Below, in pieces: positions 1 through 17,561 of a DNA stretch of 24,000 bases (position 1 is its first letter; each line of letters starts with the position of its first letter). The notes below the pieces were generated by a model, which worked only from the letters and a program-made list of their open reading frames with translations, was not told the origin of the DNA and made no database searches. This DNA comes from Candidatus Hermodarchaeota archaeon. Its GTDB lineage: Archaea > Asgardarchaeota > Heimdallarchaeia > Hodarchaeales > Hodarchaeaceae. Where the stretch lies: assembly GCA_048886185.1 (NCBI GenBank), contig JBHLKY010000003.1, positions 156,806-180,805 on the forward strand, in the 5' to 3' direction. Both the position numbers and the translations under genes were made by a program.

Positions 1-270
1 GTAAGAAAAAGAGAGGAGGTTTAAAGGAAGACAAATAACAAGTTCTTTCTTGGAGAACATTCTCAATCTCATGATGTCATTTCTTATGGATATCTTAGTA
101 ACTTTAAGTGGTCTCTACTTTACTTATTATCCTATGATCAATTTTACAGGTATGATTTTTCGAAATTTAGACCAATAACTTTGTGAGGAACATATTAGAT
201 TAAATACTACTTTAATCTTCGCAAATAAATATCCTAATACATAACACATCCATGAAGATTTCAAGTAATG

Positions 271-280
271 TATATAAAAA
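271..280 (+). promoter_or_regulatory. TATA-box-like element upstream of the MBL-fold gene
   Basis: TATATAAAAA lies ~30 nt upstream of the ATG at 306. That spacing would give a very short leader under the archaeal TATA-to-TSS rule of ~26 nt. A/T-rich hexamers are common by chance in this AT-rich DNA. Confidence 0.25.
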
Positions 281-305
281 CTAATTTAGTTTATTATTTC
301 AGATT

Positions 306-1322
306 ATGGTGAACAACAGGATGTGGGTGATTCCAATCGCCTCAGAGTCCTTAGGTACTCGGGGTTTTTCTCTATTCATAGTTTCTGAAGATCAAAAAAT
401 TCTTATTGACCCATCTGTATCTCTTGCTCCATTTCGTGATGGATATCTTCCGCATATTCAAGAGATAGCTGCATCTTTTCTTTCTCGGCAGTATATCATG
501 AAATTCTGGGAACTATCTTCAATTATAATTCAAACCCATTATCACGCTGATCATTACTCATTGGGCGTTGATCGGCCATATGAATTTACGGATAAAGTCA
601 TTGCAAAGACGTTATATTCTCATCCTAGAAAAAAGATACTTGCTAAAGATCCAGTAAGAAATATAAACCTTAATCAAAAAAGAAGAGCGTTTTGGTTGTG
701 GAAAAACAAAGGCCTTCCATTATTTGTAGCTGATGGTAATACATTTATCTTCGGACGAACTAGAATAACCTTTTCAGATGCCTTACCTCACGGGAAACAA
801 AATTCAAGACAAGGCTGGGTTGTTGCAGTCTTTATATCTGATTCTTATGGAAGTCTCTTGATTTCGTCTGATGTGGTAGGCCCTGGATCTGATTGTGCAT
901 TAAATTTCATATGTGAGAATCCTGCTGATTTGATGATAATAGATGGCCCCTCGACTTATCATCCTGAACAAACTGATATAGAGAAAGAAAATGCTTTTAA
1001 TAGATTAAATCAGGTGAATGATATTGGTCCAATGATCCTTGATCATCATCTATTACGAGATTTAGAATGGAAAACACAATTGAAAGATCATGGTATTCTA
1101 GGTGAAATAATAACACTAGCGAGTTTATTAGAGTTACAACCAATGTGTTTAGAAAGTAAAAGATCTCAATTATATGAACAATTCCCCATGAATTCCTTTT
1201 TTCATAATAGATTCCAGTCTCACGATCCAATAATTTCTCAACAAGTGGAAAAAGTAGCAAAAACTCTTCCTGTTTATCGAAAGATGAATCAAATTCATAA
1301 AGAGATCCTTGATACCAAATAA
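306..1322 (+). CDS. Metallo-beta-lactamase-fold protein, archaeal UPF0282-like
   Basis: 338-aa ORF with an ATG start. It has the HxHxDH-type motif (THYHADHY) and an N-terminus (IPIASESLGTRG...LIDPSVSLAP) that resembles, from memory, the conserved archaeal UPF0282 family. A later DGP...DHHLLRD segment also fits. Confidence 0.7.
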   Translation: MVNNRMWVIPIASESLGTRGFSLFIVSEDQKILIDPSVSLAPFRDGYLPHIQEIAASFLSRQYIMKFWELSSIIIQTHYHADHYSLGVDRPYEFTDKVIAKTLYSHPRKKILAKDPVRNINLNQKRRAFWLWKNKGLPLFVADGNTFIFGRTRITFSDALPHGKQNSRQGWVVAVFISDSYGSLLISSDVVGPGSDCALNFICENPADLMIIDGPSTYHPEQTDIEKENAFNRLNQVNDIGPMILDHHLLRDLEWKTQLKDHGILGEIITLASLLELQPMCLESKRSQLYEQFPMNSFFHNRFQSHDPIISQQVEKVAKTLPVYRKMNQIHKEILDTK

Positions 1323-1368
1323 ATTAACAATATCCTATAAAGTAGGATATTAATGAGTTTCCGTTAAG

Positions 1369-1557
1369 TTATATGCCAAAAATTAGACTTTTAATGGTAA
1401 AAATAAAAATCCCAAATAATAGACAGAATTTTCCGATCCGGTTTCCAGTAGGCGCATATAAAATCGCTCCCAGAGTTATCAAAAGAGCTCCAAATTGAAT
1501 AGATATAATTACATCTAGAAGAGACCAAAAGAAGTTTGATAGGATTTCATTTAACAT
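1369..1557 (-). CDS. Hypothetical small membrane protein (2 predicted TM segments)
   Basis: 62-aa ORF with an ATG start, beginning 4 nt after the stop of the upstream 178-aa ORF (tight coupling). It is strongly hydrophobic with no recognisable motif. It could be a compositional artefact of AT-rich DNA. Confidence 0.35.
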   Translation of the reverse strand: MLNEILSNFFWSLLDVIISIQFGALLITLGAILYAPTGNRIGKFCLLFGIFIFTIKSLIFGI

Positions 1558-1561
1558 AGAA

Positions 1562-2098
1562 TCACATTTTCCATAATGGCATTTTTGGAAACTGGAAATT
1601 TAATGGTAAAATAATACACACAAGACAGAATCCACTTTTTTTTAAATTTTTAATTCTTTTTGAATCAGATATGATCAGATAAAGGCCTAAATTTCCAAGG
1701 AAAATAATAAGAGATAATACTGCAAAAATAAATAACAAATAGGAAGTAATAAATGACATTAAAATGTAAAATCCCTCAAAAGGTTCCTCTACAAATGGTG
1801 AATTAGGAAATTCCAAATTAAAAATAAAAATTAAGAGTATCAGGATGGATATTGACCGAAAAATCATCATTTTTCCATTTTCTTCATTATAATTCAAGAG
1901 ATAGATTATTGATCCTGAAATAAGTGATAAATTAACTGTTACAATTGCTATACTAAGTAAAAATGGAAATAAAAAAGAAAAAAAAGCAAGAAGTTGTTTT
2001 GGAATGTCCTGTATATAGTATTGGATCCCTTGTGAGAATAAATTTCTTATTTGAGCTATTATAAGGACTTTATGAATAGGAATCAAAATTATCTCCAA
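1562..2098 (-). CDS. Hypothetical polytopic membrane protein
   Basis: 178-aa ORF with about 4-5 hydrophobic segments. The track start is a TTG codon and the first internal ATG is far downstream, so the 5' end is uncertain. No motif recognised. Confidence 0.4.
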   Translation of the reverse strand: MEIILIPIHKVLIIAQIRNLFSQGIQYYIQDIPKQLLAFFSFLFPFLLSIAIVTVNLSLISGSIIYLLNYNEENGKMMIFRSISILILLIFIFNLEFPNSPFVEEPFEGFYILMSFITSYLLFIFAVLSLIIFLGNLGLYLIISDSKRIKNLKKSGFCLVCIILPLNFQFPKMPLWKM

Positions 2099-2344
2099 TT
2101 AATTTACCATAGTGAACCTATTTTCCTTTTTTATGCAAAGATATAAAGTCCCAAAGAAATGATAAAAAAAGCTCGAATTCAAGAAAGATTGCTTCTAATA
2201 AAGAAAAAAGCCAATAATCCATCATCTGAAGACTTTAGGGTTGAAAAATAGCCATTGAATAATTGAAAATAAGGGCATAAAAATAGATAATCCTTCTATC
2301 ATCCCTGAAAAACGTTAGAATTCACAATAATCCCTGTTTTAAAT

Positions 2345-3730
2345 TTAGAATGTACATAGATCCAATTTTATCTCTTCAAAATTCACCAGTATTTCATCAA
2401 AACCAATTTTCTTATTTTTAATTATAGAATCCAAGGTGAAAACTCCTGATTCAGCTTTAGGGCGAGAGAAAAATGATTCGAGATCCTTTTCAGACAGCGT
2501 TTCTATTTTTCCTTTATCTGTTAATTCAACAATTCTCATGACTGAACGCTTTTTGACATTTTTGATCCAAGAGACATTTAATTCTATAAAAATGTGAGGA
2601 AAAGAATTTTTCATCAGTTCTAATGGAATATTATATATATCTTTCAGACGTGCAAATAGAAATTTTGGATTCTTGCCATGTATCGTTTGAATTGATGGAA
2701 TTCCAACAGAAAGAACATTCAGGAAGGCATTAAAATGATCTTTTGTGGAAAGCTCCCCTAAATTGATGAAGTCTGGGCTTCTATGTAAAATTTTTTGAAT
2801 TTCCAATGATTTTGAAACAGTTCGAGTTTCAAGAGGATCATAACCCAGACGAAATCTCACGATATTTCCCTGTCTTATTTCGGGAGTTTCGAGGACATCC
2901 TCCACTGACAAAAGTCTGAATTGAGAAGGAATATATTCAATCAAAGCATTTTGCAGCGTAGTTTTGCCTGAATTTGGAGGTCCAATTATAGTTATGGAAG
3001 TCTGATTTTGTATTAAAAAAACTAATAAAATGGCTTGAGTTAGACTAAGACTTCCATTTTCAATTAAATCACGAATTCTTAAATTCTCTGAGCGAAATTT
3101 TCTGATATCAATGTGAACATCTTCTATAGTGAGAGGAGGAATATCAACAGTAACTCGAGTATGAAATAAAGGAGATACAAAATCAGATTTCATTGTAGGA
3201 TTACTATGATTTAGAGAAAAATCATTTTCCAACGCTATTCGATGGATAAAAGCTTCTATTTCTTTTTTTGAAAGTTGGATTGAGGTACTGCATCTTCCGT
3301 GTCTCGAATGATCTATATAGAGCTTTTTCCTGCTTGAATCTAAATACACTTCATCGATTTTATCATCAATTAAAAGCGGGCCTATTTTCTCGAAATCTAG
3401 TGTACGAAATAAAATTGGGATTAAAAGTTGTTTCGGGGTTTTTAGTTGGTTAAAAATATCTTCTAATAAATGATTGTAAAGTTGGTTGAAAGTACAGAAA
3501 TCTTTTTTTCGTAATATAAATTCTTTCAGGTAAAATTTGACCTCCTTTTCATAGTCGCTGAAATTTTTCAGATAATTATATGTTGATGTGTTATAATGAA
3601 CCTGGTACTCAAGTTGTTCGTTTTCAGATAGTTTGGTTATCGTTGCTATGTAACAGTTATATGGATATGAGTCTATTACGATTTCATCATTTGGATAGAA
3701 GCTGGGATCAATTTTTAGACGCTGATTCAT
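2345..3730 (-). CDS. Type II/IV secretion-system ATPase (FlaI/ArlI / VirB11 / TadA-like, T2SSE family), divergent
   Basis: 461 aa.
- Walker A: IIGPPNSGKTTLQNAL.
- Upstream 'IDEVYLDS...LYIDH' and 'RVTVDIPPLT...IDIRKF' blocks typical of the T2SSE N-terminal/linker region.
- Walker B-like region: RSPDFINLGELSTKD.
- His-box-like SIQTIHG. Confidence 0.85.
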   Translation of the reverse strand: MNQRLKIDPSFYPNDEIVIDSYPYNCYIATITKLSENEQLEYQVHYNTSTYNYLKNFSDYEKEVKFYLKEFILRKKDFCTFNQLYNHLLEDIFNQLKTPKQLLIPILFRTLDFEKIGPLLIDDKIDEVYLDSSRKKLYIDHSRHGRCSTSIQLSKKEIEAFIHRIALENDFSLNHSNPTMKSDFVSPLFHTRVTVDIPPLTIEDVHIDIRKFRSENLRIRDLIENGSLSLTQAILLVFLIQNQTSITIIGPPNSGKTTLQNALIEYIPSQFRLLSVEDVLETPEIRQGNIVRFRLGYDPLETRTVSKSLEIQKILHRSPDFINLGELSTKDHFNAFLNVLSVGIPSIQTIHGKNPKFLFARLKDIYNIPLELMKNSFPHIFIELNVSWIKNVKKRSVMRIVELTDKGKIETLSEKDLESFFSRPKAESGVFTLDSIIKNKKIGFDEILVNFEEIKLDLCTF

Positions 3731-3763
3731 AATTTCACTCCTTTAACGAAGAATTTCTGATCT

Positions 3764-4087
3764 TTAATGTTTTTTCTTTGACTCTTGAATCATTTGGTCA
3801 AAGATTGTACCCAAATTCTTAGGAAAAGTAATTTTTAAGGAATTAATTTTACTTTCTGCAATATCAAAACAATATTTTCTCCGTACAATTCCTTGGCCAT
3901 CAATATAAAGAGTAAGGATATGACCCTCTTTTACATGAGGCATTGCTTTTGTTATAAGAGAATGTTGTTCTTGTGCAATACTGAGTTCAGATTCAGTTAC
4001 AAAAATCGATTCTTTCTTTCCACAGATTGGACATGTAGTTTGAATGATAGATTTCTGTGCATGAAGTACAGTCAATTCCATTACCAA
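3764..4087 (-). CDS. Small CxxC protein of unknown function, first gene of the ATPase operon
   Basis: 107-aa ORF ending 33 nt upstream of the ATPase start on the same strand. It has a single CPICG motif plus a downstream H-x4-H (PHVKEGH). No family recognised. Confidence 0.5.
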   Translation of the reverse strand: MVMELTVLHAQKSIIQTTCPICGKKESIFVTESELSIAQEQHSLITKAMPHVKEGHILTLYIDGQGIVRRKYCFDIAESKINSLKITFPKNLGTIFDQMIQESKKKH

Positions 4088-4290
4088 AATTATTTTTAGA
4101 ACTGAAAATAAAAAAACCCAAGTTTCCCATAATCAAAGATCAATCCTCAAGAATTCTTCTTGAGTAAAAATAAGCAAACTAAATTATTAAATAATGCTTA
4201 AAATATTGAAACAATACTCTTTTCTCCATTACTAGACATATTATACTCCATCCATCTCTACTCAAGTTGCCTCTTATGAATAGTAATTAA

Positions 4291-4303
4291 AGAGGTTTCC
4301 TCT
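4291..4303. promoter_or_regulatory. Palindromic motif AGAGG-TTT-CCTCT (copy 1) in the divergent intergenic region
   Basis: Perfect 5-3-5 palindrome. Its 12-nt core recurs in inverted orientation at 4554-4565. Confidence 0.3.
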
Positions 4304-4553
4304 AGCCAGCTATTGTATTGTAATGCCTAATTAGATTCCTCGGTAATCTCCATTTGATTGATATCAGATTAATCAAGAATTCGCTTTGATAAGAACTTCA
4401 TTACATAATTGAGGCGGTAGAGAAGGGTCTTCTAATTTTCTCAAAGCTTTAGTAATCACCTATGAAGAGGTTCGATAAAACTGAAACATGCAATTTTCTA
4501 CATGATTCTCGTGTTTAAATAAAGCATTCTGTGATATTATGATGATATGGCAT

Positions 4554-4565
4554 GAGGAAACCTCT
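4554..4565. promoter_or_regulatory. Palindromic motif GAGG-AAA-CCTCT (copy 2), ~45 nt upstream of the platform gene start
   Basis: GAGGAAACCTCT is the exact reverse complement of AGAGGTTTCCTC at 4291-4302. It sits just upstream of a TTAAAT element and the ATG at 4609. Confidence 0.3.
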
Positions 4566-4608
4566 GCTTAAATTCGAAGACTTATTTGAGAATTTGGTGT
4601 CGAATTAA

Positions 4609-6120
4609 ATGTCAAAGGACTTTCGTTTCATCTCTAGAACCATTTTTCTTGCCATATTTGGAAACTTCGACTTCTTTAATACTTCAGATTTTGAGGAATA
4701 TTTCAAATCAAGATATAAAATCGGTGAGAGGCAGGTTTATATAATTGTTTTCTTTTTTTTCATCTTTTCCCTGATTTTCATTGGTTTTCAGATGTTTATA
4801 CTAAAGAGTGTCTCATTTGAGGATATTTTAATGGAGATATTATTAGTATTAATCTTCTTGAGGTTAATTAACCGTATCATTTTGACTCAGTTCCAGGAAT
4901 ATAGTACTTCTATTGAAACTATAGGCTATTTCGTTGTTAATGAGCTCCTAGTAATATTAGATACTTCCCATTCTCTGAAAGAAGCACTTAAGTTCATCAT
5001 ATTAGGCAATTATCCATTATTTTCTAAAACATTTGAAACTGCAATGGTTCAAACACATTTTGGTTATTCCCTTGAATTTTCACTAAAATATCAGATCAAG
5101 AAGTGCCTCAATGGGAATATTCAGACTATTTTTCTTAATATCTTAGAAATCTGGGAAAACGGGAAAAATATGGCACTCCTTTCTAAAGATAAAATTCTTA
5201 ATCGAATTTCAGAGCAGATAACAGAAGAAACCAGTAAAATCGATTCTTGGGCATCATTATCATCTGGAATAATATATTTAAGTCCTCCTATAATGTTGTG
5301 TTTTTTATTGATCTCTGGAAACATGAATGTGTTATTTGGAATAACAATTATCATATATATAGTGGTAGGATCATTCTTTTTTCATCCAGAGAGACATTTA
5401 ACTGTATTTTCTAGAAATAACGAAATTTTAAATTATGACAATAAATCATTAGAATTTCTCATTATTTTATCAGAAAATCTGTTAAAAGGCAGCTCTTTTG
5501 ACAAGAGCTTAAGTGATTCACTAAAAATAATTGAAAATGACATATACAGAGATCATCTAGTAATAAAATCAGAGCATTTGACTCAATTTCGATTAGGGTT
5601 AACTCAAGAAGAGGAAATAAAAGAAATTTTTTCTCCTGAAATTTTCTCTGAAAGAATTTCTCAGCTTGTTTTATTGATAAAGAAGTTCTCGATGATTGAT
5701 AGTTATATTGCTGGGAAAAAACTGCTGACAATGACCACTGAATTGAGTAAAACCAATGAATTGTTGAAAAAGGGGAAGGCCCAACTTACGGCAACAAAAT
5801 TCCATGGAAATGTTATACAAATACTTGCATTGATATCATTAGCTTTTATTGCAGGAGCCAGTCCTTTATTTTTATTTGTTTCAAGTATGTTAAGCCAATC
5901 ATCTACTGAATCAGCTATTAGAATGGATCATTCCATATTTGAATTAATTTACTTCATAATTGCCATTTTAATAAGTGTATTACCAATCAAGGGAGTCGAA
6001 ATCAGAAACTTCAGAAAATATAACAGAATTCCTTGGAGAAATATCTTTGGATTATCAAGATTCACCTTATTTCTTATTGTTTATATGTTTCTTAAGAATT
6101 TATTGACAGGTTTATACTAA
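4609..6120 (+). CDS. Polytopic membrane platform protein, FlaJ/ArlJ / TadC-like (two T2SSF-like repeats)
   Basis: 503 aa with multiple TM segments. Two soluble segments resemble the T2SSF domain pattern:
- ...LDTSHSLKEALKFIILGNYPLFSKTFETAMVQTHFGYSLEFSLK...
- ...LSENLLKGSSFDKSLSDSLKII...
Each is followed by TM helices. It is transcribed divergently from a T2SSE ATPase. Confidence 0.6.
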   Translation: MSKDFRFISRTIFLAIFGNFDFFNTSDFEEYFKSRYKIGERQVYIIVFFFFIFSLIFIGFQMFILKSVSFEDILMEILLVLIFLRLINRIILTQFQEYSTSIETIGYFVVNELLVILDTSHSLKEALKFIILGNYPLFSKTFETAMVQTHFGYSLEFSLKYQIKKCLNGNIQTIFLNILEIWENGKNMALLSKDKILNRISEQITEETSKIDSWASLSSGIIYLSPPIMLCFLLISGNMNVLFGITIIIYIVVGSFFFHPERHLTVFSRNNEILNYDNKSLEFLIILSENLLKGSSFDKSLSDSLKIIENDIYRDHLVIKSEHLTQFRLGLTQEEEIKEIFSPEIFSERISQLVLLIKKFSMIDSYIAGKKLLTMTTELSKTNELLKKGKAQLTATKFHGNVIQILALISLAFIAGASPLFLFVSSMLSQSSTESAIRMDHSIFELIYFIIAILISVLPIKGVEIRNFRKYNRIPWRNIFGLSRFTLFLIVYMFLKNLLTGLY

Positions 6121-6227
6121 TTAAATCATTTTTTCAGATAATGATATTTTTGGGAGTTTTTTAAGATCCACTTTATTACAAGACAGATGATCTAGGAAGA
6201 GCTGATTTTAATAAAAAGCTGAGAAAA

Positions 6228-9200
6228 ATGTCAATAAGAAATAAGTTCCAAGATTCAGTAAATACAATTGTTTTCTTACTTATTACATTCTCATTAGTAT
6301 TCAGTTCTCTCAATACATGTAATATCCTGCAATTTTCTGATAAATCTGCTTCTGAGATTAATTACTTTCCAAAAAAAGAGTTTTTTACCCAGAATGTTCA
6401 AAAAAATATTTCTAAATTCCAAATTAATTCGTTTTCATCCAATGAAGAACCCATACCCTATTTTCTAGAACAAAGCAATGAATTCGATTTAGAACTTAAC
6501 CAAATGAAACAAATATTAACCACATCAAACACAAACATTTCCATTAATTCAAAAGTTAAAAATTCATCCTTTCAGATCCTTTCAACAGGTAATACAAGCA
6601 TTAATGAGTGGCAAAATGGTATCGAACCTGATTATGGATATGTTAATGTATCTACGTTTCTTTCGGAGGATGAAACTGTCTTTCAATTAAATTACTCTGA
6701 TAATAGTGTGACTCCTGCTTCAGGAATTACTAACACGAAGTTTCTGGGCTCCTTCAATCCGAATGTAACAAGTTCTTCAACTATCATATCTTTTGACTTT
6801 CGAATCCCATATGTAACCCCAGGCTTTTTGAGTACTTTACACACTCTTGTATTGGATTTTAGATTTAATAACGGCTCGATAAGCTTTATATTATCTGATT
6901 TCGGTGGAAGCATTGGTGAAATACTTGAGGAAAACATTACAAGGCCTAATGGATCTGATACATTATTCATATTGTGTAATGATACAGTACCTTTCAGTTG
7001 GAAACATATTTCTTATAATATTACACGATTGGTCACAACATACTTTGATCTAGAGGATTACATAAAATTTTCAGAGCTTACTACCCTTTTCTGTTATTTG
7101 ATTTCATTTTCACCAGAATTTCAATTATGTCTCGATTTAAACAATATAGAGTATTTTGCATCATTACCCTGCAATCCGCCAATTAACTATTCAATAGGAG
7201 AAACAACTGTTTTTTCTGAGAATGGTTCTCTCTCTTTCGAGTCAGCTTTGGGAAATTTCACTTTTTGTGCTTACGAGGACTCCCCGAGGAATAATTCCCA
7301 GACATATCTAGAGGTTAACATATCTCGTATATTTAACTTGGAAAGCTTTTGTTGGGCTGAAAATTGGAATAAAACTAATGTGAAGATTAAGATGTTTCTG
7401 AATATTCCTAAAATTCTTGAAGGGGCATCTTCTAGTATAATACACATTTTTCTTCCTTCTGATTGGAATAATCTTAATATCATTAACCATAGTGTTAATT
7501 TCAAGTTTCTTAACAAAACAAGAATGTTAAATGAATATACTTTAGGTAATTATTATAAGCTGAACGTCTCTAGAATAGAGGAGGGTATTCTAGAGGCATG
7601 GACATTAAATCATCTCTCAAATATTATTACTCCCACAGATATTAGCAGAAATGAAGTCATTGAAATTAGAGGTGACTTACATTATCCCTTACCGGGTTAT
7701 ATAAATTTATTTTTGCAAAATGGGTCTTTTATCTATCATCAAACAACACTCCCAATGATCAATTCAACTTTTATTTTTCCAAAAATAACCATAACGGATC
7801 AATTCCCTCTTGGAATTGTACAATTAACTCTTAATTGGTCATATTCGCATGGATTTGGAATTTTTAAAAAGCTAGTTTATATTCATGAGGATGTTAATCT
7901 TCACTCACTTATTCTATTCCAATCGCCGCAAAATATAGATATACATCAGTTTGAACCATTATTGATTAACCTTAGCCTCTTAAAAAATGGGAATAAATAC
8001 TCTACAAACTCAACTTTGGTATTCTTATTTATGGAGACTGAATGGTTACTTTTTTTTCAAACATCTAATAATGACTATATTTTAAATGTGTCTCATATTA
8101 TTTGGAATCCAGGGGATTACACGCTTGATATTATCGCTTCTGATGGCAATTTATTTTTTGCAAAAAATGTTGTGAACATAACTGTTGAACCTGCATCCAT
8201 CTTTTGGAGTTTTGAAAATTTAAAAACAGAAATATTGAAAAACGAGAGTATTAATTTCCGAGTTTATTCTTATGTAGTTCCTCAAGGAAGTTTATATTTT
8301 AAAATTCTTTCAGGTTTAATTATTCGGATTTGGATTAATGACACAATAGTCTCTACCTATCAAACAAACTTATATGGATTTAGTGATGTTGAATTTTATC
8401 ATGGAACCCTAATAGATGGGGATTTTCTTCAGGTTGTCCTAGAAGGTAGACTTGGAGGGGAGGTTGTTAAACTTCAAACAGTATTATTCCTTATTTCGAA
8501 TGAAACAGTCCTAAACAGTGGAGATAGAGCCTATATTAAAGAAATAACGAGATCTGTAGTAAAGGCGAATGAAACTTTTTATATTTATTACACTATCGAA
8601 TACTTAAGCAATAATTCAAATTGGTTTATACAGATAGAAACATTTAGCGATTTAATATTATCCGCATTCATTTTAAGAGATAACTATGTTGTTGGAGCCC
8701 ATATTGAGGATGAAAAGTTAATCTGGACACTTAAAGCAGATCCATCGATTAAAGACACTTTGGTTTTAGAATTACCAAGCCCAACAGTCTTGGTCAGAAA
8801 GGAATCTTTAGGAAAAAAGTTCAGATTGAAAATCTTAACAGAATCGAAATTAACGATCAATAACTACACAATAGAAATTAATTTACAATTTCTAGGCTTC
8901 ACATTTTCAAATATTTCTCTTTTTGATTCATTAAATCGTGATATCACAAATCTATTTCCAATGACCATTAAGGGGACATTTATTTCATTTTTCAATCTTA
9001 ATATAATTGCTGGGCTAGAAATATGTTACTTCTTAGAAGGTTATCTTCATACATTAGAAATTGTAATAAAAAAGCCTTTTCTGCCAACTTATATGTATAA
9101 TGAGAGTATTATTGGAAGCTGGAAATTTTCAGCCCAAATCAACTCCTCATATTCAGTTATATATACCATCTTAGGTTTAGGCTCTTGGGAATGTTATAAT

Positions 9201-9755
9201 ACTAGCCTAAAAGTATTCTCAAATGCATCTAGTATCGTAACAGCCTTTTTACCACCTCAAAAATGGAATTATTCAATTTCGATTCAATTGATAGTGAAAT
9301 ATCATTTTGCGTTTATAATAGGAAGTTCATTCCAGAACTTCTCAATTAGAGACCCATTTCCCCCAACATTAGATTATTCTATCGAACCACTGGTTAATCT
9401 CATTCGAATACATGCTTTTGTATTTGAGCCTGATAGAGCTTCAGGAATCAAGAATGTCTCTCTATTAATAGGAGAAGAAAATTACTCTTCTCTTAATTTT
9501 TCATCATATCACTTTGAATTTGAAATCCCAACTGTCCTTGCAACTTCCTCATTCATCAAAATAAAGGTTTTCGATAGGGCTGGTAATGAAAGAACAACTG
9601 ATTTCATTGATATTAATAATTTTATTTCTAATTCTTCTTCTCTTTTCATGAATTTAGCAACACAATTTCTCTTTTCTACTCTTTTTTCTGTAGTTATAGT
9701 TAGTAGCATTCTCTTTTCTCGAATAATTCGAAGGAGAAGGGCCTCAATTCTTTGA
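6228..9755 (+). CDS. Giant surface protein: N-terminal signal/anchor, C-terminal TM anchor with RRRR tail, very dense in N-glycosylation sequons
   Basis: 1175-aa uninterrupted ORF.
- N-terminus: ...NTIVFLLITFSLVFSSLNTC.
- C-terminus: ...FLFSTLFSVVIVSSILFSRIIRRRRASIL.
- About 45 N-x-S/T sequons by my hand count.
- Beta-sandwich-like strings such as GDYTLDIIASDG...NITVEP and KVFDRAGNERT.
No family recognised. Confidence 0.8.
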   Translation: MSIRNKFQDSVNTIVFLLITFSLVFSSLNTCNILQFSDKSASEINYFPKKEFFTQNVQKNISKFQINSFSSNEEPIPYFLEQSNEFDLELNQMKQILTTSNTNISINSKVKNSSFQILSTGNTSINEWQNGIEPDYGYVNVSTFLSEDETVFQLNYSDNSVTPASGITNTKFLGSFNPNVTSSSTIISFDFRIPYVTPGFLSTLHTLVLDFRFNNGSISFILSDFGGSIGEILEENITRPNGSDTLFILCNDTVPFSWKHISYNITRLVTTYFDLEDYIKFSELTTLFCYLISFSPEFQLCLDLNNIEYFASLPCNPPINYSIGETTVFSENGSLSFESALGNFTFCAYEDSPRNNSQTYLEVNISRIFNLESFCWAENWNKTNVKIKMFLNIPKILEGASSSIIHIFLPSDWNNLNIINHSVNFKFLNKTRMLNEYTLGNYYKLNVSRIEEGILEAWTLNHLSNIITPTDISRNEVIEIRGDLHYPLPGYINLFLQNGSFIYHQTTLPMINSTFIFPKITITDQFPLGIVQLTLNWSYSHGFGIFKKLVYIHEDVNLHSLILFQSPQNIDIHQFEPLLINLSLLKNGNKYSTNSTLVFLFMETEWLLFFQTSNNDYILNVSHIIWNPGDYTLDIIASDGNLFFAKNVVNITVEPASIFWSFENLKTEILKNESINFRVYSYVVPQGSLYFKILSGLIIRIWINDTIVSTYQTNLYGFSDVEFYHGTLIDGDFLQVVLEGRLGGEVVKLQTVLFLISNETVLNSGDRAYIKEITRSVVKANETFYIYYTIEYLSNNSNWFIQIETFSDLILSAFILRDNYVVGAHIEDEKLIWTLKADPSIKDTLVLELPSPTVLVRKESLGKKFRLKILTESKLTINNYTIEINLQFLGFTFSNISLFDSLNRDITNLFPMTIKGTFISFFNLNIIAGLEICYFLEGYLHTLEIVIKKPFLPTYMYNESIIGSWKFSAQINSSYSVIYTILGLGSWECYNTSLKVFSNASSIVTAFLPPQKWNYSISIQLIVKYHFAFIIGSSFQNFSIRDPFPPTLDYSIEPLVNLIRIHAFVFEPDRASGIKNVSLLIGEENYSSLNFSSYHFEFEIPTVLATSSFIKIKVFDRAGNERTTDFIDINNFISNSSSLFMNLATQFLFSTLFSVVIVSSILFSRIIRRRRASIL

Positions 9756-9765
9756 GCTGAAAAAT

Positions 9766-11223
9766 GTGGATCAAATTACATTGAAAGAAAAAATCAGGAT
9801 TTTCATCATAACATCTTTTCTATTCATTATTCTAATCTCTGTAGAAGGTTTTATTATATTAGATGATCCTAGCGGAATTTTAAAGGAATTTCTAGCATCT
9901 CCTATTGAGTTAATAAACTATCTTCCTATCATTATACTGCTGTTTGTATTCGTTAGAGAAATAACTTCATTATTTAACAAGAATGTTCCAATGTTAGATT
10001 TCACGTGGCTAAGAAAAGGTATAATCTTTGTCTCAAATTTCAATATTTACTTGGTGATTTTCGAGACACATTCCCTTGGAAAAATCCAAACAAGCGAATT
10101 AAGCCAATTAAAGCATTTAGAATTGTTCTCATTAGAATTGGACAAAAAAAATAGATGTGTTAGGGTCATTCTTTATTCAAATTCCTATAAAGAATTGGAT
10201 AAATTAATTATAAATTCAAAACCAATTCTAGAGGTTGTTTTACCTGATATTCACTTAATCTCATTCATTCATTATAAGAAGTTGTTCGATAAGACTGAAG
10301 TAGTCAAATTCAGAAAACAATTCATTTTAAAAGAGAATTCAAAATTTCTTTTCCCTCAATTTATCAGTAATCCTACTGCGAGTATTAGTTCTTCGTTTTC
10401 CAGAATTGTTTTAGCCTTCAACATTCATAAAAGAGGAAATAGCAGTGAAAATGATAATGTAGTTAGATGTGTTCAGTTATATTGTCTTGAAGATTTTAAT
10501 CAGAATTCTTTTTTTAGGTGGGCAAATAAGATACTTTCAAGCCCTCATAAGAACTCACCTAAATTCCTTTGGGGCAATCATGAGCTTCAAAGGATTAGAT
10601 TGAGATGTCAGATTGAAAAAAGATTCTTATTTTGTTTTCAAGATGGACTCAATTTATTTAATCGTGAGTTAGCTCTTCTCCTGTTAGGATTAAAGAAAGT
10701 TGGAATTGAAGAAAAGAAAACTGACTATTCTCTTGATACAAAACAATATGAAACAAAACACTCATCCTTATTAAGTACAGAAACTGAAATACATACCTCT
10801 GGAGCAAATCAAATCTGTTCCGAAATGTGTAATATTCTGAAAGAGAATAAATTATCGAATACAGAAAAAGAAAAGAAATGCGTCAAAAGAGGAGCTCTTA
10901 GCAAGAAATTATTGATAAATGATGATTTTTATTTAATTATTGAAAATATTTTGAAACAAAAAAAAGAAACAGATCAATTTCATCTAATTTCCGAATTATA
11001 CAAACAAATCTCACATAAACAATTCTTTTGTGTGCTAGCACATTTGAGTCAGATAAGAAAGCCTGAAATATCTCATCAAAAGATTATCAAAATTATTATA
11101 ATTCTATTAAGATTGATTTATCAAGTTCAGGTAACTCCTTCTAGTGATAAAAGATCTCCTTCTGTAGTATTGGCTGATAATGAAGTGATTGAAAAGATTT
11201 CTCCCTCATTGACTCCAAATTAG
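9766..11223 (+). CDS. Membrane-anchored protein of unknown function (N-terminal ~3 TM, large Lys/Asn-rich soluble domain)
   Basis: 485-aa ORF with a GTG start, 10 nt after the stop of the 1175-aa gene (operonic). Hydrophobic N-terminal ~100 aa. No catalytic or binding motif recognised. Confidence 0.6.
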   Translation: MDQITLKEKIRIFIITSFLFIILISVEGFIILDDPSGILKEFLASPIELINYLPIIILLFVFVREITSLFNKNVPMLDFTWLRKGIIFVSNFNIYLVIFETHSLGKIQTSELSQLKHLELFSLELDKKNRCVRVILYSNSYKELDKLIINSKPILEVVLPDIHLISFIHYKKLFDKTEVVKFRKQFILKENSKFLFPQFISNPTASISSSFSRIVLAFNIHKRGNSSENDNVVRCVQLYCLEDFNQNSFFRWANKILSSPHKNSPKFLWGNHELQRIRLRCQIEKRFLFCFQDGLNLFNRELALLLLGLKKVGIEEKKTDYSLDTKQYETKHSSLLSTETEIHTSGANQICSEMCNILKENKLSNTEKEKKCVKRGALSKKLLINDDFYLIIENILKQKKETDQFHLISELYKQISHKQFFCVLAHLSQIRKPEISHQKIIKIIIILLRLIYQVQVTPSSDKRSPSVVLADNEVIEKISPSLTPN

Positions 11224-11231
11224 ATAAGGAA

Positions 11232-11334
11232 TGGGCCCACCCGGATTTGAACCGGGGATCTTTTCCTTAACATTTGGAACAAATGTTATCTCGGTTATCA
11301 GCCGAGCGCTTTAACCAGGCTAAGCCATGGGCCC
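11232..11334 (-). tRNA. tRNA-Ile (anticodon GAU) with a ~28-nt insertion between the anticodon stem and T stem (putative non-canonical intron)
   Basis: Reverse-complement fold:
- Acceptor GGGCCCA/TGGGCCC with discriminator A.
- D arm GCTT-AGCCTGGTTA-AAGC.
- Anticodon arm CTCGG-CTGATAA-CCGAG.
- T arm CCCGG-TTCAAAT-CCGGG.
33 nt lie where a 5-nt variable loop is expected, including a perfect 8-bp hairpin AACATTTG-TTC-CAAATGTT. No CCA is encoded. Confidence 0.8.
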
Positions 11335-11394
11335 TTTTTTGATATGAAAAAAGGTAAGATTTTTCCTGAGTCTTCCTTAAATAAATCTTGTGGA

Positions 11395-11796
11395 CTATCG
11401 ATAACTCTTGGTATATTTTGCTCGCGCTCCTGGTCCACCAAAGTGCTTAGGTTCACGACGACGTGGATCTCCTACTATCATATGACGATCATATTCAATA
11501 AGTTTAACCCGTAATTCTTCAGAATCAGTCCAAGATAAAAGAGCTCGTGCGATAGCAGTTCTAGCAGCGTCAGCTTGACCCATATACCCTCCACCTTTAA
11601 CTTTAACCTTAATATCTATTTTATTTTTAGTTTTTTCATCAATAAAATAGAATGGCTCCAATAATTTCAACCTGACAATTTCAGGCTCAATGATCTCTAT
11701 TGGTTTGCCATTAATTAATATTCTACCTTTTCCTTCTTTGATAATGGCACGCGCAATAGCAGTACGTCGCTTTCCACTTCGTAACATACTTTTCAT
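11395..11796 (-). CDS. rps9: 30S ribosomal protein S9 (uS9)
   Basis: 133 aa. GKRRTAIARA, GGGYMGQADAARTAIARAL and the C-terminal ...GARAKYTKSYR are hallmarks of uS9. Confidence 0.95.
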   Translation of the reverse strand: MKSMLRSGKRRTAIARAIIKEGKGRILINGKPIEIIEPEIVRLKLLEPFYFIDEKTKNKIDIKVKVKGGGYMGQADAARTAIARALLSWTDSEELRVKLIEYDRHMIVGDPRRREPKHFGGPGARAKYTKSYR

Positions 11797-11806
11797 TTAT
11801 AAACCT

Positions 11807-12244
11807 TCATATCTTTGATTTCAATTCGCCAAGGGATATGTAAGATGCTTTAGGATTTATTTTCTGAGTTGCTGGGATGATTTCAATTTCTTTTTCGTGT
11901 AATTCTTCAGGAAAGTCCTTGAAAACAACCAAGCGATTATAAGCTTCCTTTCCTTTACTTTTATGATATGGAAGCATACCACGAATCGTTCTCTTCAGGA
12001 TCTTGTCGGTTTCACGGGGGTAAAAAGGACCTTTTAATGGATTCGATTTGGTTTTAATTCTCCTTCTTTGCGAATATCTGCTGGCTATTAGATCTCCTCT
12101 TCCAGAAATCAATCCTTTATCTGCATTGACTATTATGATCTTTTCTCCATTCAATAACCTTTTAGCTACAATACTTGCTAATCGACCTAAAATAGAATTT
12201 TCTGCATTTATGATGTTTGATTCATCTAATAAATTATCGAGCAT
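11807..12244 (-). CDS. rpl13: 50S ribosomal protein L13 (uL13)
   Basis: 145 aa with the ILGRLAS..AK.LL.GEKIIIVNA and TIRGMLP..K.KG..A..RL blocks. A GAGGA Shine-Dalgarno-like motif lies ~10 nt upstream. The gene ends 10 nt before rps9. Confidence 0.95.
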   Translation of the reverse strand: MLDNLLDESNIINAENSILGRLASIVAKRLLNGEKIIIVNADKGLISGRGDLIASRYSQRRRIKTKSNPLKGPFYPRETDKILKRTIRGMLPYHKSKGKEAYNRLVVFKDFPEELHEKEIEIIPATQKINPKASYISLGELKSKI

Positions 12245-12264
12245 TATTTTTTCCTCTTTTTCCC

Positions 12265-12651
12265 TTATTTAATTATTCTGATTTTAGATCCATTAGGATT
12301 CTTTTTTACAAGATCTTCGATGGTTAGACAATGTCCACCAACAGAGGTGATTTTCTCTCGAGCTGCTTCTGAAAACGATTCTGCTGCAATATCAAGTTGA
12401 TGATTCAATAATCCTGTACCCAGAACCTTCCCTGGTATCAATAAAACATCACCTGGAGATGATATTCTATTTAGATGGGATAAATTCACGGTAACGCGCC
12501 TCCTTTTCGCCCTTGATAGTTCAGACGCTAGTAACGACCAGATTTTAGCGTTATTTGCAGCAGCGACTCCTTTCAAAAGCCTAATTAACGTGATTTTGTT
12601 TGGATCTGATCTTCCCTTAGTTTTCAACTGAATCACACTTTTAAAACTCAT
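12265..12651 (-). CDS. rpl18e: 50S ribosomal protein L18e (eL18)
   Basis: 128 aa. DPNKITLIRLL, AKIW..LA..L...RRRRVTVNLS.LNR, PGKVLG.G.L.H...AA.SFSE.A.EKI...GG.CLTIE.L...NP.GS..RII closely matches archaeal L18e as I remember it. Confidence 0.88.
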   Translation of the reverse strand: MSFKSVIQLKTKGRSDPNKITLIRLLKGVAAANNAKIWSLLASELSRAKRRRVTVNLSHLNRISSPGDVLLIPGKVLGTGLLNHQLDIAAESFSEAAREKITSVGGHCLTIEDLVKKNPNGSKIRIIK

Positions 12652-16448: not shown

Positions 16449-17561
16449 ATGGTTTATTGGTGGGAAAGTCATTTTTATTCAAGTCTCTCTTTCTGTGATT
16501 TGCTTAGATATGAGATTTCCAACTTATTCTTGGTGAATAAATTGAAATACGGCTGTTTAGAATGTGGTGGAAATCTTGTGCAAACTGAATCTGATATTGT
16601 TTGTATGAATTGTGGTTTGGTAGCAACTAAAATTTTCGAAAAGCCGACGATACAGCTGATAAAAGCAGAGAGAAGTTTTGGAAACCAATATGCATCTATA
16701 AGTGAGAGACCTAGTGCCATGAAATCTTTAGGAACATACATAGGTTGTTATCGAAAGAAGTTTTTAGCCGACTCTAAAGGTGTTCAATTAAAAATTTCTG
16801 CTAAACAGCAATTTCGGCGATTAAAATCTCTGAACGACATTTATCTCCACTTTAATGGTCGCCAGCGAGAGTATCGCGCTTATAATTTCTTAACAACTAT
16901 TTGTAGTATGCTTCAAATTACTGAGGCAGCAAAAGCTGATGCTTTATTCCTGTATCGAAGTGTAGAACCGCATTTACACGGGGAGCTAAAACTTTCCAGT
17001 TTAATTATGGGCTCTCTTTACTTAGCTATTAGATCCAGGAGAGAAAATATTGAATTAATACGTCTTGTTGGCACCGTTCATAGTCGTGGTTACACAATTC
17101 AGGGTAAAGACATAATAAAGGCTGCTTCATTAATTAGACAACATGCTCAGATTCGAGTAAGTCATGTAAAATCGGAGGAGTATCTGGATACTATTATTAG
17201 TCGTCTCCAGAGAGACGCTGCGATATTAAAACAAGTGCAAAAAAAGATAGTTGTCATAAAAAATGAATATTTTCATTATTTAAAGGTTACAGCAAAAAAA
17301 TTACTTATGAATTTCCCACGATCAAATCGAGGTGGACGTAATCCATTTATACTAGCAGCAGCGATAATCGTTGCTTCAGATATTCTGTTAGCACAGCAAA
17401 ATTTGTTTTCCCACTGTTATAAACATAAATCTAAACGAGGAATCTTAACACAAAAGCACATTGCAAAAATCTTAAGTATAGCTGAATTCACATTACGTGA
17501 ACACTTTCTCTTGTTAGCAAAACCTTTAATGGAAGATGAAATGAAAAATAATCAAAAATAA
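16449..17561 (+). CDS. tfb: Transcription initiation factor B (TFB/TFIIB family), divergent
   Basis: It has a zinc ribbon (CLECGGNLVQTESDIVCMNCG) followed by two cyclin-like repeats (...AKADALFLYRSV...SLIMGSLYLAIR... and ...GRNPFILAAAIIVASDIL...). The ATG at 16449 gives a 35-aa hydrophobic extension before the ribbon. TTG at 16530 or GTG at 16533 would give a canonical short N-terminus. Confidence 0.78.
   Translation: MVYWWESHFYSSLSFCDLLRYEISNLFLVNKLKYGCLECGGNLVQTESDIVCMNCGLVATKIFEKPTIQLIKAERSFGNQYASISERPSAMKSLGTYIGCYRKKFLADSKGVQLKISAKQQFRRLKSLNDIYLHFNGRQREYRAYNFLTTICSMLQITEAAKADALFLYRSVEPHLHGELKLSSLIMGSLYLAIRSRRENIELIRLVGTVHSRGYTIQGKDIIKAASLIRQHAQIRVSHVKSEEYLDTIISRLQRDAAILKQVQKKIVVIKNEYFHYLKVTAKKLLMNFPRSNRGGRNPFILAAAIIVASDILLAQQNLFSHCYKHKSKRGILTQKHIAKILSIAEFTLREHFLLLAKPLMEDEMKNNQK

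Follow-up and report, generated by a model that had tools for sequence, protein, structure and literature searches.

A conserved gene cluster of Hodarchaeales that probably encodes part of a split, Tad/Epd-like type IV filament machine

The DNA analyzed here, hereafter the window, is a 24,000-nucleotide stretch from Hodarchaeales/Heimdallarchaeia, and its positions 1369 to 11223 hold a cluster of seven genes that probably encodes the motor, the platform, and the accessory part of a type IV filament machine. An earlier note had described this cluster as a secretion-ATPase and platform module devoid of a pilin and built around a giant glycoprotein. An open reading frame (ORF) check recovered all seven ORFs of that description, with the same positions and spacings, in two divergent operons separated by a control region of 521 bp (positions 4088 to 4608) that contains two conserved promoter-like elements. 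The minus-strand operon starts with o107 (3764 to 4087), which encodes a 107-residue protein of a small zinc-binding type and always lies directly upstream from the gene for a 461-residue secretion/assembly ATPase of the T2SSE family (2345 to 3730; Pfam T2SSE). A spacer of 246 nucleotides (2099 to 2344), which contains no gene, separates the ATPase gene from o178 (1562 to 2098). The latter encodes a 178-residue membrane protein with about four transmembrane (TM) segments according to its hydrophobicity, and is followed by the last gene of the operon, o62 (1369 to 1557), which encodes a 62-residue two-helix membrane hairpin. The plus-strand operon comprises the gene for a 503-residue polytopic platform protein of the fused TadB/TadC (FlaJ)-like type, with two predicted T2SSF-type modules (4609 to 6120), the gene for GP1175, a 1175-residue surface protein of the N-glycoprotein type (6228 to 9755), and o485 (9766 to 11223), which encodes a 485-residue protein with two N-terminal TM helices and a Cys-containing domain. 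The start codon of o485, GTG, lies 10 nucleotides past the preceding stop codon.

Conservation of the cluster was assessed by using the platform family as a probe and retaining one genome per GTDB species. The resulting 11 loci were all from metagenome-assembled genomes (MAGs) of Hodarchaeota, Heimdallarchaeota, or Promethearchaeota. The seven genes were found in the same order and orientation in about nine of these 11 species-level Hodarchaeales genomes, down to 39% identity for the platform, and the loci that keep the full order all have the cluster adjoining the S9-L13 operon. Protein identities to the orthologues of these window-type loci were 57–75% for the ATPase, 57–80% for o107, 39–64% for the platform, 36–63% for the giant protein, 27–48% for o485, 52–79% for o178, and 57–71% for o62. 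Retention of order and orientation at 27–80% protein identity confirmed that the seven ORFs are genuine genes. The cluster is real and strongly conserved in Hodarchaeales (Asgard archaea). A sequence search also identified the platform, the ATPase, and the giant protein as each 100% identical to proteins of MAGs labeled "Promethearchaeota archaeon". More distant clusters (loci L004, L016, L018, L019, and L021; 37–43% ATPase identity) are differently arranged and hold a Pfam-less platform homologue of about 500 residues, an o107 homologue, a Ras-superfamily GTPase (Pfam Arf/Ras/Roc), and a homologue of the giant protein.

One Hodarchaeales MAG (locus L006; JBHLMN010000016.1, locus coordinates 129–12632) harbors a rearranged or disrupted cluster. 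The 178-residue gene is broken up as two ORFs and separated from the ATPase gene by an insertion of about 7.3 kb, and the platform gene is followed by an MBL gene rather than by the giant protein gene.

The ATPase matched Pfam T2SSE with 52.7 bits (cut-off 24.9; 3.6e-14) and contains the Walker A motif GPPNSGKTT. Its closest solved relatives, with full-length similarity, were Archaeoglobus fulgidus GspE (2oap; 7e-19), CpaF (3e-15), and FlaI (5e-14). These matches establish it as a genuine T2SSE ATPase and place it in the type IV filament (TFF) superfamily. The ATPase scored below every NCBIfam equivalog cut-off (VirB11, TrbB, FlaI, TadA, and BasE). The best NCBIfam match was VirB11 (TIGR02788; 96.7 bits for a cut-off of 249.95), restricted to the C-terminal domain, and the scores obtained with FlaI, TadA, and BasE were 66.9, 59.2, and 53.7 for cut-offs of 550, 373, and 1000, respectively. 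The proposal that the His box and Walker B region are degenerate was not borne out, as every catalytic residue is kept and the variants are conserved throughout the clade. The latter consist of GEL-ST in place of GE[IV]RG after Walker B and of VGIPSIQTIHG, which lacks the first His, in the His box. The same variants are present in 28 homologues from Asgard, Odinarchaeia, and Nezhaarchaeota, in which the Walker A Lys/Thr, the Glu-Asp of the Asp box, the Walker B Asp..Gly-Glu, and the second His of the His box are invariant. Since they are common to the whole Asgard/Nezhaarchaeota clade, the variants represent a signature of this clade and not decay. A paralogous ATPase of the same family, without a platform, is encoded in L020 (4463–8759), where it adjoins a gene of the FtsZ/tubulin family, a TFB-like gene, and a diphthamide-synthase gene.

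The 503-residue protein is polytopic, as proposed, but the two T2SSF-like repeats attributed to it were not detectable directly and were revealed only transitively. A profile of the platform family searched against 1.84 billion representatives retrieved only 39 relatives, the most distant of which passed the Pfam T2SSF cut-off of 25.2 bits (P0185, 43.8 bits; P0183, 29.3 bits). T2SSF matches were found in 7 of 32 members of the family. In the related archaeal loci L032 and L034, two platform genes of half size, with T2SSF matches close to the threshold, come after the ATPase gene. Alignment by hhalign with a narrow profile matched residues 279–434 of the platform to the product of the second half-size gene of L034 (90.9%, E 1e-6) and residues 88–252 to that of the first (44%, E 2e-4). 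With a broader profile, A2, the values were 98.5% for residues 279–434 and 99.1% for residues 88–252; these are not independent, because A2 itself includes T2SSF-positive distant members. The AlphaFold2 (AF2) model of the platform (mean predicted local distance difference test score, pLDDT, of 75.8) shows two units, each made up of a helical bundle on the cytoplasmic side, one long helix, and a TM hairpin. A search for internal duplication by hhalign was not significant (E 0.18), though the start motifs line up. Direct tests of T2SSF membership failed and the transitive ones succeeded, and from the latter we conclude that the 503-residue protein is a putative fused TadB/TadC-like platform. Loss of synteny and the lack of any T2SSF/FlaJ profile or structural match for the platform had been named in the earlier note as outcomes that would speak against an ATPase-platform module; neither was observed, since the genes are syntenic and the platform is transitively T2SSF-related.

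GP1175 has the features that had been ascribed to it, namely membrane anchoring, with an N-terminal hydrophobic segment and a C-terminal TM segment followed by an RRRR tail, and a high density of N-x-S/T sequons. The 45 sequons compare with 18.6 ± 3.8 expected from composition shuffling (maximum of 32 in 2000 shuffles), and 26 sequon columns are shared by 80% or more of 22 orthologues that range down to 34% in identity. The excess and positional conservation of the sequons are strong indirect evidence for a predicted ectodomain that would be exposed and N-glycosylated. The AF2 model (pLDDT 76.3) contains beta-sandwich domains throughout residues 76–1123, forming an all-beta ectodomain of about 1050 residues between the N-terminal hydrophobic helix and the C-terminal TM segment. 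Foldseek retrieved only generic Ig/FN3/macroglobulin arrays, and none of the 22 family members matched Pfam. The N-terminus is Sec-like, and no conserved [KR][GA] precedes the hydrophobic region. The C-terminus is conserved as a TM segment followed by R.I[KR]KR[KR][TA]SI[LF]. In all orthologues, the cytoplasmic tail (window positions 9680–9755) ends with [KR][KR]x[ST][ST]I[LF]-COOH, and this conserved end suggests a docking motif for a cytoplasmic partner. An archaeosortase substrate was also considered on the basis of the TM segment and basic tail and dropped, the putative Pro motif ahead of the TM segment being absent from the window sequence. The family occurs in Asgard lineages only, its 25 close homologues being labeled Hodarchaeales, Heimdallarchaeota, or Promethearchaeota or bearing no label. 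By tblastn (1e-10 to 1e-15), homologues of the giant protein were found together with the homologous ATPase and platform, in a different gene order, in L004/L021, L016, and L018, which represent three other cluster types. The link that had been drawn between the TFF core and a giant glycoprotein is thus genuine and evolutionarily stable, as the homologues co-occur in differently ordered loci.

The four remaining proteins of the cluster are o62, o178, o107, and o485. The hydrophobic character of o62 and o178 was confirmed, with two and about four TM segments, respectively. Orthologues of o62 were found in nine loci (57–71% identity), with a nearly invariant loop, YAPTGNRIGKY. It has no class III signal, and an upstream extension is impossible because its ATG is the first start codon past a stop. 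A leaderless pilin was considered for o62, but hhalign against the Flp-like family described below was not significant and this assignment was dropped. In o178, the motifs YLLDYNEENGK and LKKS..C..C..LPLGFQFPNMPLW are conserved, with neither a Pfam or NCBIfam match nor a class III signal. A novel prepilin peptidase (A24) was rejected for this protein in view of the lack of a conserved Asp pair and of a GxGD motif, and its comparison with the 153-residue neighbor of the pilin-like gene of L018 was not significant. Residues C17, P18, C20, H49, D61, R67, and R68 of o107 are invariant, and H54 nearly so, in window-type and distant loci (29–78% identity), and o107 homologues lie beside the ATPase gene in L004, L018, and L019. 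Since these Cys, His, and Arg residues are invariant, a C2H2-like metal site and an Arg-Arg motif are suggested; no Pfam or PDB relative of o107 was found. The TM segments of o485 span residues ~6–39 and 42–71. The protein has only one sequon, and its Cys-containing domain is probably cytoplasmic. It is conserved in all complete window-type loci, with the motifs KIQTSELKQLKHL..FSLELD, SKPILEVVLPD, and NQIC.ELCN...KC, and matched no Pfam or NCBIfam family. o485, o178, and o62 are specific to the window-type cluster, and o485 was not found in the distant cluster types. The spacer between the ATPase gene and o178 is 64 to 240 nucleotides long in other loci. Its three small ORFs in the window (26–35 residues) recur only in contigs of the same strain and not in orthologous loci, and were discarded as prepilin candidates for want of conservation outside the strain.

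The absence of a pilin proved to hold only inside the window. A scan of the cluster and window detected no class III signal protein among the cluster ORFs, and no window ORF matched FlaF/G/H-type accessories or the A24 prepilin peptidases, as the earlier note had found. The left flank of the cluster could be followed on contig JBHLLS010000003.1 (GCA_048938885.1; L038), which is 99.99% identical over 11,322 bp to the part of the window that it covers (positions 1–11322) and was counted as the window's own contig, including its left flank. On this contig, a plus-strand gene located 9.0 kb left of window position 1 (L038:650-862) encodes a 70-residue Flp-like candidate prepilin. A divergent minus-strand gene (L038:1-534) encodes a Ras-superfamily small GTPase (Pfam Arf/Ras/Roc), the pair lying approximately 9.0 to 9.7 kb left of the window. 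Because a pilin-like gene and a Ras-type GTPase gene are present about 9 kb outside the window, the description as pilin-less cannot be upheld. For the same reason, the concern expressed in the earlier note that bona fide prepilins might make this an ordinary pilus locus was realized in part: none was found among the small ORFs of the cluster, and a candidate is present in the chromosomal neighborhood. The gene order in L038 is GTPase (minus strand), 70-residue gene (plus strand), KH protein, RIO1, Csl4-like, methyltransferase, S12, NusA, L7Ae, RpoA2, RpoA1, MBL, and then the seven-gene cluster. The candidate pilin and GTPase genes are therefore separated from the cluster by a block of RNA-polymerase and ribosomal genes.

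The 70-residue protein would be cleaved between MRINFLKIGVSSLEKLLRRKRRG and SPLVEEGILIGLSLFGFLLILSIVTGVLDWLLVNADELLKQLGSLFS, the two parts that make up its sequence, the context of the putative site being RRKRRG followed by SPLVEEGILIGLSLFGFLLILSIV. It has a variable basic leader, a Gly at position –1, an invariant mature start, SPLVEEGILIG, with a Glu at +5, and a hydrophobic helix. Its 17 homologues share a variable leader, [KR][GA] at –1, an almost invariant SPL[VM]EE[GA]IL, and Glu at +5. The candidate pilins range in size from 63 to 71 residues and are 84–89% identical among window-type genomes. This pattern corresponds to the anatomy of Flp/Tad/Epd-type prepilins and makes the protein a candidate, with a predicted cleavage site. 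A filament-subunit candidate of the TFF superfamily is therefore found on the same contig and not in the cluster or window.

Related loci connect the Flp-like gene with the motor. L004, L016, and L018 also encode a 63–67-residue protein with a basic leader, Gly or Ala at –1, SPL[VM]E[EH], and a hydrophobic helix. Scanning of metagenome contigs with these three small proteins yielded 14 more loci. In 7 of the 14, the small pilin-like gene is divergently adjacent to a GTPase gene, and in 4 of the 14 it lies beside an ATPase gene, with a detectable platform in three of these four. It adjoins ATPase and platform genes in L030–L032 and L034. The pilin/GTPase layout of L038 recurs in L035 and in L027/L007, where L027 is 100% identical in its overlap with the left flank of L007, which has a complete window-type cluster. 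The GTPase gene lies beside the ATPase gene in L004, L016, L018, and L019, and its adjacency to a pilus motor or pilin gene is conserved in at least 11 distinct loci. L004 and L018 each have the giant gene next to the Flp-like gene, in divergent orientation.

Together, these results make it rather probable that Hodarchaeales have a lineage-specific type IV filament machine, Tad/Epd-like and split between separate gene groups, of which the cluster supplies the motor, the platform, and the accessory part. Its likely use would be in adhesion or cell-cell contact. In such a machine, an unlinked class III signal peptidase would cut the prepilin after the Gly that separates RRKRRG from SPLVEE. The docking site of the hexameric ATPase would be the pair of cytoplasmic helical domains in the platform, and ATP-driven lifting of mature pilins from the membrane would produce a thin filament without globular head, as for Tad and Epd. 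Switching or positioning of the ATPase could fall to the small GTPase and to the Cys/His protein o107, with its invariant Arg-Arg. The giant glycoprotein, with its C-terminal helix as anchor, might act as a filament adhesin or as a collar through the surface layer, and the 485-, 178-, and 62-residue membrane proteins might form a membrane sub-complex coupling it to the platform. The system might be regulated by a paralogue of transcription factor TFB encoded in the window.

Several observations weigh against this reading. The T2SSF evidence for the platform is indirect: the 503-residue protein had no Pfam or NCBIfam match and none in PDB profile and sequence searches, the hidden Markov model consensus sequences of family alignments A1 and A2 had no T2SSF, Pfam, or NCBIfam match, and the hhalign match of the N-terminal half was weak with the narrow profile (44%). 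Foldseek placed the platform model closest, among PDB entries, to chain Ca of 3jc8, which models the architecture of a type IVa pilus machine and in which we take this chain to be PilC; this match agrees with a platform but was also weak (E 0.16, probability 0.82). The Flp-like protein is recognized by none of the pilin models of Pfam or NCBIfam, and its cleavage is predicted from a sequence pattern alone. In window-type genomes, the candidate pilin gene is about 10 kb off and paired with the GTPase gene and not the ATPase gene, so that its proposed link with the motor comes from relatives. A search limited to a crude GxGD scan and precomputed Pfam labels revealed no prepilin peptidase in the loci covered, about 0.5 Mb in all. 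The roles proposed for the giant protein, o485, o178, o62, o107, and the GTPase derive from co-occurrence only. Finally, filaments of 15–25 nm, such as those of cultured Hodarchaeales considered below, are thicker than pili, and a bare Flp-type filament would not explain them.

The earlier note had proposed a non-pilus use of the module, or else a new subtype of type IV pilus. Its TFF core of ATPase and platform was supported, and its display function was not. In the version of the display function considered here, which we regard as unlikely, the ATPase and platform would insert, extract, or display the giant glycoprotein, possibly with o62 and o178 as adaptors, and the Flp-like gene would serve the GTPase. 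A TFF core is employed for surface display in the Sulfolobus bindosome, although the match of the ATPase to the BasE model is weak. Display would also be in keeping with the lack of any class III signal protein within 10 kb on either side of the platform gene in 11 window-type loci, with the pairing of the distant Flp-like gene with the GTPase gene in these genomes, with the restriction of o485, o178, and o62 to the window-type cluster, and with the giant protein being the most constant partner of the ATPase and platform across cluster types. However, with its Sec-type N-terminus and its anchoring at the C-terminus, the giant protein is unlike TFF substrates, every known one of which, to our knowledge, has an N-terminal class III helix. 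The Flp-like gene lies beside ATPase and platform genes in L030–L034 and occurs in the L004, L016, and L018 clusters together with the giant gene, which implies that the ancestral system had a pilin. In window-type genomes, moreover, the high identity of the candidate pilin (84–89%) is accompanied by its retention in the same conserved neighborhood.

The filament machine has also to be weighed against the presence of two unrelated units, in which a TFF-like core (o107, ATPase, platform, and perhaps o178 and o62) would be linked to a surface-layer or adhesin operon (giant protein and o485) by a frozen neighborhood. The region does lie between operons for RNA polymerase and for ribosomal proteins, a setting in which gene order changes unusually little, the fold of the giant protein is a generic Ig-like array, its gene does not follow the platform gene in L006, and N-glycosylated surface-layer proteins have been reported for Hodarchaeales (10.1101/2025.02.26.640444). 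We nevertheless find such a coincidence improbable. Giant homologues accompany the ATPase and platform in L004/L021, L016, and L018 despite a different order, orientation, and flanks, no ribosomal genes surround the cluster of L016, and the giant and Flp-like genes adjoin divergently in L004 and L018. In window-type clusters, the platform and giant genes are on the same strand and approximately 100 to 450 nucleotides apart, with only 10 nucleotides between the giant gene and o485 in the window. These short spacings are consistent with a single operon.

A more ambitious version of the filament machine connects it to the helical filaments, 15–25 nm thick with knobs of about 50 nm, that have been observed in cultured Hodarchaeales on protrusions at contacts with partner methanogens (10.1101/2025.02.26.640444). 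A bare Flp-type pilus being much thinner, the locus could explain these filaments only if they include the giant glycoprotein. Taken as a whole, it is quite doubtful that an Asgard-specific machine of this kind exists, in which a cryptic Tad-like motor, controlled by the eukaryote-like GTPase of the Ras/Arf family, by o107, and by a dedicated TFB paralogue, would build thick, knob-tipped filaments with the giant glycoprotein at syntrophic contacts.

A VirB11-type or Ced-like apparatus for DNA or protein transfer, in place of an adhesive filament, is very improbable. In its favor, VirB11 is the best NCBIfam match of the ATPase, L016 and L018 have DUF87 (HerA/VirB4-like) genes at a distance of a few kb from the cluster, and small two-TM membrane proteins similar to o62 accompany the crenarchaeal Ced importer. 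Against it, the VirB11 match covers only the C-terminal ATPase domain, far below the cut-off, and over its full length the ATPase most resembles A. fulgidus GspE, CpaF, and FlaI. No VirB4, VirD4, VirB6, or relaxase gene was found in any window-type locus, the cluster shows vertical inheritance at a constant position in the chromosome without hallmarks of mobile elements, and the Flp-like prepilin belongs to the conserved set.

The described systems that most resemble the proposed filament machine are the archaeal Epd/System 1 pilus (clade 1; Makarova et al., 2016, PMC4858521; Sivabalasarma and Albers, 2026, preprint) and the bacterial Tad pilus. The machine has in common with Epd/System 1 a T2SSE ATPase, a platform of two modules, predicted here to be of the T2SSF type and encoded as in System 1 by two half-size genes in relatives L032 and L034, a short pilin without globular domain, and large putative adhesins in the locus. 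Epd pilins lack a globular domain and their platforms are encoded by two genes (bioRxiv 10.64898/2026.04.22.720090). The FtsZ-family and diphthamide-synthase genes beside the paralogous ATPase gene of L020 are also found in clade 1 loci of Thermococci and methanococci (PMC4858521). In contrast to Epd/System 1, the platform is fused (503 residues) and missed by T2SSF models, neither a dedicated EpdA-type peptidase nor minor pilins were found in the locus, the candidate pilin gene is approximately 10 kb away and paired with a small GTPase gene, and the accessory set formed by o107, o485, o178, o62, and GP1175 has no counterpart in curated families. Likeness to the bacterial Tad/Flp system resides in CpaF being among the closest solved ATPases (3e-15) and in the size of the candidate pilin (63–71 residues), its leader ending with Gly, its conserved mature start with Glu at +5, and its single hydrophobic helix. 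The bacterial Flp motif is G/XXXXEY, whereas the candidate pilin has no Tyr at +6. Unlike Tad/Flp, the ATPase scores low with TadA (59.2 versus 373), no secretin or equivalents of TadZ, TadD, or TadG were found, and the context is that of an archaeal single membrane. With a low TadA score, a fused platform, a candidate pilin that is distant and unrecognized by models, and no peptidase found, the locus is a relative of Tad/Flp and Epd loci but not a member of either group. What sets it apart from an ordinary Tad/Epd locus is the lack of any curated family for the platform, the pilin, the giant protein, and four of the accessory proteins, together with the inclusion of a GTPase in the conserved set.

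Large anchored proteins are known from other TFF loci. Some type IV pilus loci of archaea encode large "S-layer-like" proteins with a C-terminal TM segment and PilY-like adhesins, and those of Thermoproteales (clade 4G) combine the TFF core with a very large protein of the former type and a second large secreted protein, the two having been interpreted as S-layer-like protein and adhesin (PMC4858521). The likeness to clade 4G, a TFF core beside a very large C-terminally anchored protein, is one of architecture only, and GP1175 differs in belonging to a family restricted to Asgard lineages. The bindosome (BasEF, BasABC), in which a TFF ATPase and platform organize large surface glycoproteins without a long pilus, corresponds to the concept of the earlier note. 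Its substrates carry class III signals, unlike the giant protein, whose N-terminus has no conserved class III cleavage motif, and the BasE score of the ATPase is far below the cut-off (53.7 versus 1000). An archaellum is not indicated either, the FlaI score being low (66.9 versus 550) and no accessory or archaellin family matching any ORF; nor is VirB11-dependent type IV secretion or conjugation, for which TIGR02788 remained below cut-off and VirB4, VirB6, and VirD4 were missing from window-type loci. In Myxococcus, the small GTPases MglA and SofG control type IVa pilus ATPases. The Ras-superfamily GTPase described here is similarly tied to a pilus motor, by gene adjacency alone, and differs in belonging to the expanded Asgard set (Pfam Arf/Ras/Roc). 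Unlike the situation in Myxococcus, no Roadblock/MglB gene was found in window-type or distant core clusters, only L016 having one nearby. A Roadblock/MglB-like role for o107, considered in view of the neighboring GTPase, was abandoned since no evidence for it was found.

No description of the module or of its link with a GTPase was found in the searchable literature. According to a 2026 preprint census, TFF systems are widespread in archaea except in Asgard, where ordered searches gave only core matches, with possible pilins elsewhere. This gap is accounted for by the escape of the platform, pilin, and accessory proteins from existing models and by the scattering of the parts among housekeeping operons. 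The new features are the fusion and extreme divergence of the platform, an unrecognized family of candidate pilins, a conserved GTPase and Cys/His protein, three extra membrane proteins, a recurrent TFB paralogue, and the dispersal of the parts. The ATPase, the fused platform, the Flp-like pilin, the GTPase, the zinc protein, the giant protein, and the TFB paralogue provide candidate genes for the filaments of cultured Hodarchaeales. The locus also offers a testable example in which a small GTPase of eukaryotic type would be coupled to a membrane machine of prokaryotes, in an order currently proposed to contain the closest archaeal relatives of eukaryotes. Even if the link with a pilus were wrong, at least six conserved, uncharacterized protein families specific to the lineage would remain.

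Alignment of 10 orthologous intergenic regions revealed two conserved blocks in the divergent control region. Block 1, AAAAWAACCCAAGTTTC, lies on the o107 side (window 4107–4122, minus strand), and block 2, GATTCTCGGGTTTAAATAAAGGA, is located about 90 nucleotides ahead of the platform start (4508–4523, plus strand). The pattern CYYGGGTT followed by an A/T box had two matches in the window for 0.21 expected. The element YTYGGGT[TA] was found directly upstream from an A/T-rich, TATA-like box at all four promoters, those of o107/ATPase, platform, GTPase, and pilin, the last two copies being located at L038:582 (minus strand) and L038:592 (plus strand). It is absent from the distant cluster types, and relaxed versions are common. 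The shared motif, which resembles a TFB recognition element, provides weak evidence for a link between the four promoters. The control region of the window is about 230 nucleotides longer than in orthologous loci and contains an 18-nucleotide inverted repeat (4291–4308 and 4548–4565; 89% complementary, 239 nucleotides apart). Either a small insertion or a regulatory structure may account for the extra sequence with this repeat.

The TFB paralogue is a divergent TFIIB-like protein of 370 residues (16449 to 17561, plus strand), which matches Pfam TFIIB with 21.8 bits, below the cut-off of 23.6. Homologues (29–35% identity, E 1e-33 to 1e-68) were found in L004, L016, L018, L020, L021, and L034, a few kb from ATPase, platform, or Flp-like genes and, in L016, directly upstream from the platform gene on the same strand. 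The paralogue may be a dedicated transcription factor of the system, its membership being uncertain.

Additional genes were observed in the distant clusters. A small membrane protein of about 158 residues is encoded in L018 (5487–5963, plus strand) and L019 (5935–6414, plus strand), the L018 copy having a sub-threshold OST3/OST6-like Pfam match, and Glyco_transf_22 and PMT_2 genes are present in L017 (9177–12822). Such glycosylation-related neighbors fit with a glycosylated surface product. The DUF87 genes located a few kb from the TFF-like core occupy positions 1–1455 of L016 and 3267–5312 of L018, and L016 has a Roadblock/LC7 gene and a gene for a TPR-RING protein nearby.

In the window, the cluster is flanked on the left by the gene of the MBL-fold protein and on the right by a tRNA gene and the genes for S9, L13, L18e, RpoD, KsgA, DUF655, the TFB-like protein, two EF1A-like GTPases, and S7. 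The tRNA gene (103 nucleotides, 11232–11334, minus strand; Rfam RF00005, 61.8 bits) lies directly past the stop codon of o485 and downstream from S9, and presumably contains an intron because it was missed by ARAGORN. The EF-Tu/EF1A-family GTPases, of 509 and 443 residues, are encoded in tandem (18070–19599 and 19682–21013, plus strand); presumably one is aEF1A and the other a paralogue.

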